This document shows positions 1 through 3,000 of a stretch of 14,504 nucleotides of DNA, one piece after another. The DNA lies in IMG/VR virus record IMGVR_UViG_2529292834_000008, positions 1 through 14,504 of that record, one strand, 5' to 3'. The position numbers were made by a program. The stretch comes from a virus (taxonomy: Duplodnaviria > Heunggongvirae > Uroviricota > Caudoviricetes). Numbering within the stretch: position 1 is the stretch's first letter; the number at the start of each line of letters is the position of its first letter.

Positions 1-3000
1 CGGAACGTTATCGTTCACACGGACCGTGGAGGCCAGTACTGTTCAGCAGATTATCAGGCGCAACTGAAGCGGCATAATCTGCGTGGAAGTATGAGCGCAA
101 AAGGTTGCTGCTACGATAATGCCTGCGTGGAAAGCTTCTTTCATTCGCTGAAAGTGGAATGTATCCATGGAGAACACTTTATCAGCCGGGAAATAATGCG
201 GGCAACGGTGTTTAATTATATCGAATGTGATTACAATCGGTGGCGGCGGCACAGTTGGTGTGGCGGCCTCAGTCCGGAACAATTTGAAAACAAGAACCTC
301 GCTTAGGCCTGTGTCCATATTACGTGGGTAGGATCATCCACCCTAAAACTATGACCAAGTATGAGATCGTCATCGTAACTACAATTGCCGTGAATATGTA
401 TGATTTGCTCGTCTGGAACGGCATAGATCTGCTGCAAGGTATTTGTATAATTAAATGAAAAATAGATGCTTTCTCTTGGTATGGGCGGGATGTATTGCTT
501 AGGATTGTAAGCATCGGCTATGTTAATCCCTTTAACCCAATCAGCGAATTGCTCCTTCAAACGAGCTGACAGCATTTGTGTGATTTTATTTACTTCATAT
601 TGGTAATCGTGATGATAAGCATCGCTCCAATCATCGGTATTGTATGAAGCCAAAAATATCTCACTGTTTTGAAGGATAAGCTCATAATCAATTTCACCTA
701 AAGCATTTTCTAACTCATTCCACTCGTCCCCAGCAGGAATGTATTCTTCTATCGCGTCATATAGATCTTGGTCATTTTTTTCTACATACGACTTAAAGTG
801 CTTGTATCCTGTTGGTAAGCCATGACGCATGTCAAATCCATTTCCTATTATGTAAAGCCTCATTGTTTTTCCCTTAGTCGAATTGTATAAAAATACTAAC
901 ATGGCCTGCTCCACGTTGACTACTATCCCCTCCTTTGAGTAATGCCTTCATCAGATGTAACAACATTTGCGAGCTTCCACAGTTCGCTCAAAGCGGACTA
1001 GAAGGTTAGCTTGCGTCGGACTTGGCGTATTTAAAGAAGTGCTGGTGGAGACTGGTTGTTGTGTTCCATTTCTACAGAACAAAATCACAGAAACTATACC
1101 CAATAGTTATATTGAATCAATGATGAGACAGCCTCATATTTATCAGGACTGGTGTACGTCCAATACAGGAGGTTGTCGTGCTGGTTCTCAAATGTGCGCT
1201 AGCTATTGCGGCTGTAATGGCAATTTATTGTCTTGCTGTTGTTCTTACGGATCGCCTTTCTGATTGATTTTATATTGGCGAGGTGACGTGAGTTAAGTAG
1301 AATTGCTGCGGGTGCTTGAGGCTATCTGCCTCAGGCATGAACACCAAAAGGCAGATAGAGAAAAGCCCCAGTTAACATTACGCGTCCTGCAAGACGCTTA
1401 ACATTAATCTGAGGCCAATTTCATGCTAGACACATGTAGGTTAGCCTCTTACGTGCCGAAAGGCAAGGAGAAGCAGGCTATGAAGCAGCAAAAGGCGATG
1501 TTAATCGCCCTGATCGTCATCTGTTTAACCGTCATAGTGACGGCACTGGTAACGAGGAAAGACCTCTGCGAGGTACGAATCCGAACCGGCCAGACGGAGG
1601 TCGCTGTCTTCACAGCTTACGAACCTGAGGAGTAAGAGACCAGGCGAGGGAGAAATCCCTCGCCACCTCTGATGTGTCAGGCATCCTCAACGCACCCGCA
1701 CTTAACCCGCTTCGGCGGGTTTTTCGTCGCATAATGAGGTTGTAATTTTAGCTACCATTAGACTATCCTAAGGATCTCAAACAGATCTATTTTGCATCAA
1801 ATTTGGTGCATGGCTTTGCCAATAATCGGAAAACAAAAGGACTCATTAGTATGAGCTGCCCACTCAAAAAACACACGCGGTTGAGTATTCCGCCTCGCGA
1901 TAAAAGCGTTGTGGCAGTCCCTCGCCCAGCGATTGATGAAAACTGCGCACATCGTGAACAAGTGAAAAATGCTTTTGATTTCGGTTTTTCTCGTTATGAG
2001 AAAGCCATGGAAGAACTTTCAAAAGTGTAATGATGGGTATTGTGCTCTATGGCTGAGATTGTTGAAGGAGTGCATTACCTTACGGTTGATGATCTTGTTG
2101 AAATCAATCGTTCCCTAATTGAATTACAGACGCCAGATGAGCCCGTTGGTGTTCTGAGTCCAGATAACTTAAGTTCTTCTCAGGCCCGTCCCAGCATGGT
2201 TCGATGGTATGAACAGACTAATGACATGTTTGTACTGGCATCGGTATTGATTGAAAGTCTGATTCAGAATCATCCGTTTGCTAATGCGAACAAACGAACA
2301 GCTATGATGGCTGGTTACGTCTTCTTGTTGTTGAATGGCTATGAGTTAACAGCACCAGGCGATGAAATCGTGGAAATGGCAGAGGGACTGGCCTGCAAAA
2401 CCTATACTCGAGAAGATCTCGAGAACTGGTTGTGTTATTGGTCTCGCGCGTATGACAGCCGGGAATTATGTAAAACAGGCGCAACTATTGTTTTGTATGA
2501 AACTATCAAGCTTAAAATAGAACAGCAAAACTAAAGGTGCTTCCAATGAAAACCCGCTTCGGCGGGTTTTGTTTTTTCCTGGCATTCTGGTTTACAATTC
2601 GCACGCCAGCCTGAACAACTGGCACCTGCTGCGCCAGCAGAGACAACCGATGGCGCACAAAAACAAATTTCACAATTCTGATACCGACCTTGCCATCCGG
2701 CACGGGCGGCGTTCACACGCATTTAAAACCGACTGGTACCAACACCCACCATGTACTGAAGAACAGGCCGAATGGCTAATTCATAACTACCGCAGGCGCG
2801 GATACGAGGTTAAGAAAGCCCTCAGCCTCGATTATCGTCACTGGATAATCTATGTCAGGCTCCCTTATTCCGAACGCCCACCGCGTCCGTCCCGCACATT
2901 CCAGCAACGCATCTGGAGGTAACGTGCGGGTATTACTTCGACCTGTTCCGGTACCGGAACTTGGGCTGGTGGTGCTAAAACCGGGCCGTGAATCCATGCA

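Follow-up and report, generated by a model that had tools for sequence, protein, structure and literature searches.

Does the short hydrophobic reading frame that lies just upstream of hok in a lambdoid prophage encode a membrane peptide and, if so, of what kind? The question is raised by a stretch of 14,504 nucleotides (nt) from a virus of the Caudoviricetes (IMG/VR record IMGVR_UViG_2529292834_000008, positions 1 to 14,504), the whole of which is referred to below as the window. In it, a Shine-Dalgarno (SD) sequence AGGAGG is followed, after the 5-nt spacer TTGTC (1173-1177), by a GTG codon at 1178 that opens a frame of 29 codons, ended by TGA at 1265-1267 and bounded upstream by two consecutive in-frame TGA codons (1121-1126). 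A sequence-only reading of the window had described this small open reading frame (ORF) as an unannotated gene for a small membrane peptide upstream of hok, with the shape of a type I toxin or membrane regulator. The SD sequence, its distance from the GTG and the 29-codon hydrophobic frame are confirmed by the sequence and the ORF list, and the position upstream of hok is confirmed by the matches to the hok leader and the hok gene (Table 1). We find that the ORF at 1178-1267 exists, is under purifying selection at the protein level, is modular, and has no detectable family. Judged from these sequence features, its translation is highly probable.

The frame encodes (M)LVLKCALAIAAVMAIYCLAVVLTDRLSD, in which a hydrophobic stretch of about 22 residues, with Lys5 near the N-terminus, is followed by an acidic tail. 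At 29 residues, with a best 18-residue Kyte-Doolittle window of 2.74, the product falls among small (<60 residues) hydrophobic proteins with a single predicted transmembrane (TM) segment. The hydrophobic core is retained across all peptide variants; the helix is Ala-rich, with Tyr17 and Cys18 near-invariant, and the acidic tail has the consensus (T/M)-(D/E)-(R/H)-(L/F)-(S/T)-D. When the window was searched for AGGAGG followed within 4 to 9 nt by a start codon and an ORF of at least 25 codons, two sites were found, the small ORF and the terminase large subunit gene. The mean number of such sites was 0.5 when the window was simulated by a first-order Markov model. None of 300 simulations yielded a short ORF as hydrophobic as the one observed, and the AGGAGG-GTG small ORF is not a chance pattern.

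Homologous loci were collected from IMG/VR by means of a leader pattern (1136-1160) that lies outside the small ORF, thereby avoiding selection for the ORF itself. The GTG and the open frame were intact in all 125 complete loci, which together contain 23 distinct nucleotide versions and 18 peptide versions of the ORF; the frame is 29 codons long in 121 of them and 31 or 35 codons long in the 4 with an altered stop. Frame, start and SD sequence are also kept in 13 of 14 annotated loci, in all 6 GTDB loci and in the copies on Shigella invasion plasmids described below, and the SD sequence reads AGGAGG or AGGAGA in every haplotype except one (L042, AGAAGA). Insertions and deletions are absent within the ORF and are present just past it in two lineages (L068 and L069). 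An intact frame alone proves little, since the probability that no stop codon would arise among 40 randomly relocated mutations is 0.73.

The substitutions themselves were then compared among the three frames. The 40 variable-site alleles are distributed over codon positions 1, 2 and 3 as 10, 11 and 19, and in the small-ORF frame they amount to 20 synonymous and 20 non-synonymous changes (24 and 63 sites available, respectively), compared to 8:26 with five stops and 8:31 in the other two frames. In a permutation in which the same base changes were relocated randomly within the ORF, 11.35 ± 2.4 synonymous changes were expected, and the probability of obtaining 20 or more was 0.0004. In comparisons among the window type, L042, L069 and the invasion plasmid, the lineages that differ most, the proportion of differences at synonymous sites (pS) is 0.35-0.60 and that at non-synonymous sites (pN) is 0.07-0.20, with pN/pS of 0.16-0.57; the flanking non-coding DNA diverges by 0.26-0.55, similar to pS. 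All replacements are conservative (A/V/T, V/I, M/V/L, D/E, S/T and L/F). Conservation in homologous loci, a check proposed with the sequence-only reading, was thus borne out, with a synonymous excess found in the small-ORF frame only. Altogether, the kept frame, start and SD sequence and the synonymous excess argue for the first part of that reading, a real gene for a small membrane peptide; its type I toxin part found no support, as discussed below.

Two other frames in the region were considered and rejected. An overlapping 98-codon frame (967-1263) has the 8:31 substitution ratio, its upstream part is not conserved, and it is missing from the L001 type; the minus-strand ORFs annotated in phage HannyBb have no open counterpart that extends across the region on that strand of the window.

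Several observations weigh against a gene. The family is young and its range narrow: of the species representatives in GTDB, those found to carry the ORF were Shigella flexneri, Escherichia ruysiae and E. albertii, plus three short contigs of metagenome-assembled genomes (MAGs) only, and the sequence types on the MAG contigs are those also seen in E. coli. The 40 variable sites on which the selection test therefore depends are few and, given shared ancestry, not fully independent. Truncated copies occur, one locus (L008) being homologous from 1203 onward only and many hok loci, for example that of O157:H7, across 1245-1300 only, so the ORF is dispensable. No promoter adjoining the ORF is conserved among 63 haplotypes, and the profile scans and protein search described below gave no homologue of known function. 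On these grounds, the ORF could be no gene but an accidental open stretch, conserved through its youth and its linkage to the hok promoter, or a stretch with a role at the level of DNA or RNA. Confinement to Escherichia and Shigella with most copies more than 90% identical, the high chance of meeting no stop, the truncated copies, and the lack of a call by the Prokaryotic Genome Annotation Pipeline (PGAP) in the records inspected are all compatible with this explanation. We nonetheless consider it unlikely: the excess of synonymous and third-position changes is specific to the small-ORF frame, pN is lower than both pS and flank divergence by a factor of 3-5 in divergent pairs, indels fall just past the ORF and not inside it, the SD sequence and start are kept, or improved to ATG, in a plasmid copy of 78% identity, and the search for a conserved RNA structure gave none to which the conservation could be attributed.

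This plasmid copy was detected by tblastn against plasmids, which returned a peptide of 76% identity, MLVLKGTLAIAAVMTIYCLIVVLMERFSD, encoded on the large virulence plasmid (pINV) of S. flexneri, S. sonnei, S. boydii and S. dysenteriae and on E. coli plasmids resembling it (136 records at 60-80% identity). The small ORF is found on all invasion plasmids of Shigella and enteroinvasive E. coli sampled. The pINV DNA is 78% identical to the window across 1078-1363 and retains AGGAGG, the 5-nt spacer, all 29 codons and the TGA, with ATG as the start codon. On pWR100 of S. flexneri M90T, the copy lies 290 nt upstream of the virulence gene icsP. The hok gene next to it is decayed, with its promoter and about 55 nt of leader left before homology ends; the region upstream of icsP on pWR100 (L140, 3902-4190) is a prophage remnant containing the small ORF and this hok promoter stump. 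In the M90T genome paper, the pINV ORF is called by Prokka as CP037924_00134 (PMC7132871), a variant of the small ORF. The differential RNA sequencing (dRNA-seq) table of the same paper lists no transcription start site (TSS) on either strand within about 300 nt of the pINV ORF and none at the hok promoter stump; the nearest same-strand TSS, "novel transcript" 91318, lies 321 nt upstream of the ATG (PMC7132871, Table S3). No intrinsic terminator is predicted between this TSS and the ORF, a hint that the pINV ORF is transcribed.

A 171-nt query around the small ORF (1130-1300) has matches in 2,644 of 5,426 complete E. coli genomes, and in 1,892 of these genomes (approximately 35% of the total) 80% or more of the query is matched, with identities of 84-100%. 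The ORF is present in BL21(DE3), in the long-term evolution strain REL606, and in four sequenced phages (Tritos, Evi, mEp460_ev081 and HannyBb). Its description as unannotated is correct for RefSeq, in that every E. coli record inspected lacks an annotation of it, and incorrect for other sources. GenBank already contains the exact peptide or close variants under the names "membrane protein" or "conserved hypothetical protein", examples being ACT39199.1 (named for REL606) and ACT43394.1, and the same peptide or variants of it are found as the "membrane protein" KHH36601.1, in protein cluster P0041 (650 contigs, labelled "MULTISPECIES: hypothetical protein [Enterobacteriaceae]") and in the Prokka call on pWR100. 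These entries, 76-100% identical to the small-ORF peptide, are automatic calls with no function, family or expression evidence attached. A search for homologous proteins with the 40 in-frame codons 1145-1264 returned Escherichia-type variants only, all named hypothetical or membrane protein. Profile scans of the peptide against Pfam, NCBIfam and PHROGs assigned no family; matches to ATP synthase subunit c (E = 0.0098, 16 bits versus a cut-off of 116) and to phrog_19319 (E = 2.4) were at chance level and were rejected. The peptide sequence was not found in a text search of a library of papers.

We then considered how the ORF might be transcribed. The promoter-like site on the plus strand upstream of it (Table 1) is no general feature because of its presence in a minority of haplotypes. 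Since no ORF-specific promoter is conserved, transcription would come by read-through from upstream, and the early-right operon runs in the direction of the ORF in every annotated locus.

The peptide could also be the toxin of a type I pair, killing or arresting the cell through damage to the inner membrane; a small RNA, cis-antisense or encoded nearby, would restrain it together with an mRNA fold that hides the SD sequence, and it would stand in tandem with hok/sok as a second type I system. Its size and shape fit (29 residues, one TM helix and a charged tail), as does its place next to hok/sok among defence-type cargo (AbiH, Fic/Doc), and a GTG start in all 125 prophage copies would suit a dose-sensitive product. 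The antisense promoter-like site at 1296..1267 could direct an RNA against the ORF, but it falls within the module of the hok promoter, to which it stands back-to-back, is weakened to TGAAAT in pINV and many of the haplotypes other than the 34 of 63 that carry it, and is lost where the ORF lacks hok. The dRNA-seq table for pWR100 of M90T contains no antisense TSS against the ORF, and the absence from it of any TSS close to the pINV copy also disfavours such a toxin. A search for an antisense RNA, as had been suggested, thus gave a promoter-like site in about half of the haplotypes and no listed start.

The evidence from RNA folding is similar. A helix of 9 bp (1127-1135/1169-1177) predicted in the window can cover the SD sequence, but it is broken by single changes in several haplotypes and absent from the L001, L042 and pINV types; being neither conserved nor compensated across haplotypes, it is a candidate only. 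The RNAalifold covariation term is -1.04 kcal/mol, and the folds are not significantly more stable than those of shuffled sequence (z = -1.65 for the plus strand and -0.35 for the minus strand). As conserved RNA structure, neither SD sequestration nor a 5'-3' closure (1109-1121/1263-1275) found support: these pairings form in the window and are unsupported across haplotypes. An Rfam scan found no RNA family at the small ORF, the neighbouring sok/hok leader being the sole match, and no Pfam toxin family matched. The type I toxin suggestion is thus unsupported by the tests of antisense promoter, TSS table, SD fold and Rfam, and we regard such a toxin as improbable.

It is very unlikely that the ORF is an upstream regulatory frame whose translation, or transcription into the hok promoter 8-40 nt downstream, tunes hok with the peptide itself irrelevant: the stop codon precedes the hok -35 element by 8 nt with no terminator in between, the ORF is co-inherited with hok in most loci, and an upstream element (1126-1136) is complementary to the 5' end of hok mRNA, but the peptide sequence is under purifying selection, the ORF persists where DUF1971 replaces hok or where hok is decayed (pINV), and most Shiga toxin (Stx) phage and O157 hok loci work without it, the hokW-sokW pair of Sp5 being functional (PMC8621323). 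The complementarity concerns AGACAGCCTCA (1126-1136) and TGAGGCTATCT (1317-1327), which match at 10 of 11 positions and may do so by chance; the same upstream element can also pair with the SD sequence of the small ORF. The ORF lies outside the hok mRNA, because its stop precedes the hok -35 element by 8 nt and the hok transcript start by 43 nt.

Comparison of homology bounds indicates that the small ORF is its own cassette, usually linked to hok, and that neither requires the other: recombination joints bracket the ORF, it occurs without hok, and hok occurs without it. In some lineages, the left homology joint falls at 1098-1135, or at 1155 in the BL21-derived strain BAP1; there, a DUF977 gene runs at its end over the SD sequence and the ORF's first 40 nt. 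The right joint lies at 1279-1282 in nine IMG/VR loci, in E. coli ZF8-1 and on the S. flexneri chromosome, where a minus-strand DUF1971 gene replaces hok. Conversely, Stx phages are homologous to the window from about 1290 only, so that they carry hok without the small ORF, and many E. coli genomes, including O157:H7, are homologous from 1245 only, the last seven codons of the ORF remaining as a relic before the hok promoter; O157-type hok loci lack an intact small ORF.

The left-hand boundary of the block that is usually inherited together was also inspected. On the left, 25 or more unrelated sequences meet the conserved block at one point, at about 976-1000 of the window, where a small hairpin, GTTCGCT-CAA-AGCGGAC (981-997), is located. 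The variable left side carries defence-type and other cargo (AbiH, AIPR, TPR, QueH, DUF4145, acetyltransferase or major facilitator superfamily (MFS) transporter) in either orientation, and the site has the look of a hot spot at which prophage cargo recombines. A non-coding segment of about 150 nt (984-1135) travels with the small ORF and hok in most loci; an Rfam scan of this segment revealed no RNA family. On its minus strand, the promoter-like site TTGATT-16-TATAGT (1120..1093), present in 27 of 63 haplotypes, faces the cargo genes.

From these data we infer how the small ORF may be expressed, oriented and used. An independent nin-region cassette, transcribed by read-through and acting in the membrane, is the fuller picture that we moderately favour. 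The product would be a 29-residue single-pass peptide of the inner membrane, and by the positive-inside rule Lys5 should be cytoplasmic and the acidic tail periplasmic. The gene would be a self-contained accessory cassette in the nin region of Escherichia and Shigella lambdoid prophages, with the replication genes on one side and Q on the other, sharing its strand with the early-right operon, usually directly upstream of hok/sok and presumably with no functional tie to it. Translation would be driven by the near-perfect SD sequence and the GTG start, and transcription would most likely occur by read-through, from the early-right transcript of an induced prophage or from upstream cargo genes. 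The peptide most likely acts in the membrane, either as a dose-sensitive membrane-perturbing factor at prophage induction or as a binder of a host membrane protein. A role in prophage induction, lysis timing, phage exclusion or membrane stress is possible because the gene sits at the edge of a defence-cargo hot spot and adjoins hok/sok.

A bolder proposal, to which we give little credence, would make the peptide the first of a new family of membrane effectors carried by phages and acting with no RNA antitoxin. Having no promoter of its own, it would be silent in the lysogen, and upon induction would form a two-peptide membrane module with Hok that sets the timing of lysis or release, or aborts superinfection. 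If this were true, the pINV copy upstream of icsP would be a retained functional gene rather than debris. If the peptide is made at all, a gene for a membrane peptide that is missing from the RefSeq records inspected is present in about one third of complete E. coli genomes, as well as on all Shigella and enteroinvasive E. coli invasion plasmids sampled. The small ORF also offers comparative genomics a clean test case in the search for small genes.

The window is a lambdoid prophage, and the small ORF lies in its nin region, with Q, RusA, DUF968 and terminase genes downstream; the features of the locus are collected in Table 1. From the left, the window begins with the end of an IS3-family element and abiH on the minus strand; after a non-coding stretch of about 260 nt come the small ORF and hok/sok, followed rightward by a 75-residue ORF, Fic/Doc, DUF968, RusA, the Q antiterminator, a Ser/Thr kinase, a PP2C phosphatase, a DNA methylase and terminase. 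The promoter-like site at 1275-1303 is correctly placed for the 5' end of the hok leader.

Table 1. Coordinates of the small ORF and of neighbouring features in the window
Feature	Position	Strand	Basis or remark
IS3-family element end	1 to ~330		
abiH, interrupted by insertion sequence (IS) at ~337	303-914	-	
Block usually inherited together: ~190 nt non-coding, small ORF, hok/sok	984..1725	.	Homology bounds, 128 loci; left-flank alignment
Promoter-like site ATCACA-18-TATATT	1084..1113	+	In 16/63 haplotypes; ORF transcript from ~1120 conceivable
GACAGCCTC, pairs with GAGGTTGTC (1169-1177), covering the SD sequence	1127..1135	+	Minimum free energy fold, haplotype of this window
SD sequence AGGAGG	1167..1172	+	Sequence; 5 nt before start codon
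Small ORF, 29 codons + TGA, product MLVLKCALAIAAVMAIYCLAVVLTDRLSD	1178..1267	+	One predicted hydrophobic helix (~residues 2-23), acidic tail
Promoter-like site TTAACT-18-TAAAAT, antisense into small ORF	1267..1296	-	In 34/63 haplotypes; back-to-back with hok promoter
hok promoter-like site TTGGCG-17-TAGAAT	1275..1303	+	8 nt past small-ORF stop; kept in 60/63 haplotypes
hok mRNA leader and sok target region (neighbouring module, outside small ORF)	1310..1485	+	Rfam RF01794, 122 bits, E = 4e-29
mok frame overlapping hok	starts 1423	+	ORF list
hok (HokD/HokW-like toxin)	1480..1635	+	Pfam HOK_GEF, 82.9 bits, E = 1.2e-23

Other observations concern the neighbouring genes. The abortive-infection gene abiH is truncated to 203 codons, cut by the IS3-family element that ends at about 330; E. 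coli 503025 (L002), which is homologous to the window from 337 on, has an intact abiH of 302 residues. A weak Rfam match to isrK (27 bits; gathering score 50) at 1644-1725 covers the hok 3' end and terminator and is probably merely a terminator-like structure. The 75-residue ORF (1803-2030), which has no Pfam match, directly precedes the Fic/Doc-family gene (2040-2534) in a layout like that of an antitoxin-toxin pair; related loci mostly carry rem and a hypothetical gene at this place. Just past the Q antiterminator, a gene for a eukaryote-type Ser/Thr protein kinase is followed by one for a PP2C phosphatase (5101-6680).

Among known systems, Hok/Gef (PF01848) is represented by the adjacent gene. 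Both peptides are small and hydrophobic, predicted to reside in the inner membrane with the N-terminus inside, and belong to the same prophage block. The small-ORF peptide, however, has no Pfam match at E values up to 10, and alignment of its family to Hok by hhalign gives a probability of 1.2%. Hok has 51 residues and a periplasmic Cys-containing domain, whereas the small-ORF peptide has 29 and lacks such a domain; the overlapping mok frame, the sok RNA and the fold-back mRNA of the Hok locus have no counterpart at the small ORF, where the Rfam match is confined to the hok leader and no conserved long-range pairing was found. The prophage-borne hokW-sokW of Sp5 in O157 Sakai is a functional toxin-antitoxin pair that aids phage release, and its study mentions no upstream ORF (PMC8621323). 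A decayed hok paralogue was rejected as the origin of the small ORF, given the hhalign result and the lack of a second match to the sok model.

The short E. coli type I toxins TisB, DinQ and ZorO possess dedicated small RNAs and long structured 5' untranslated regions. They resemble the small-ORF peptide, in general terms, in their length of 27-29 residues, single helix and polar or charged end; a small RNA and a structured 5' untranslated region are neither detected nor conserved at the small ORF. KdpF, AcrZ, MgrB and MgtS are chromosomal small membrane-protein regulators with known partners. Like the small ORF, they are broadly characterized by a single TM helix, a length of about 30-50 residues and an ordinary SD-driven ORF with no antitoxin; unlike them, the small ORF is prophage and plasmid cargo confined to Escherichia and Shigella. 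Its Ala-rich helix has a small-xxx-small face that would be compatible with helix-helix binding, as in small membrane regulators. By analogy of size and shape, the small-ORF peptide resembles both the short type I toxins and the small membrane-protein regulators. Small hydrophobic prophage peptides are a familiar class, which the small ORF joins without a family assignment.

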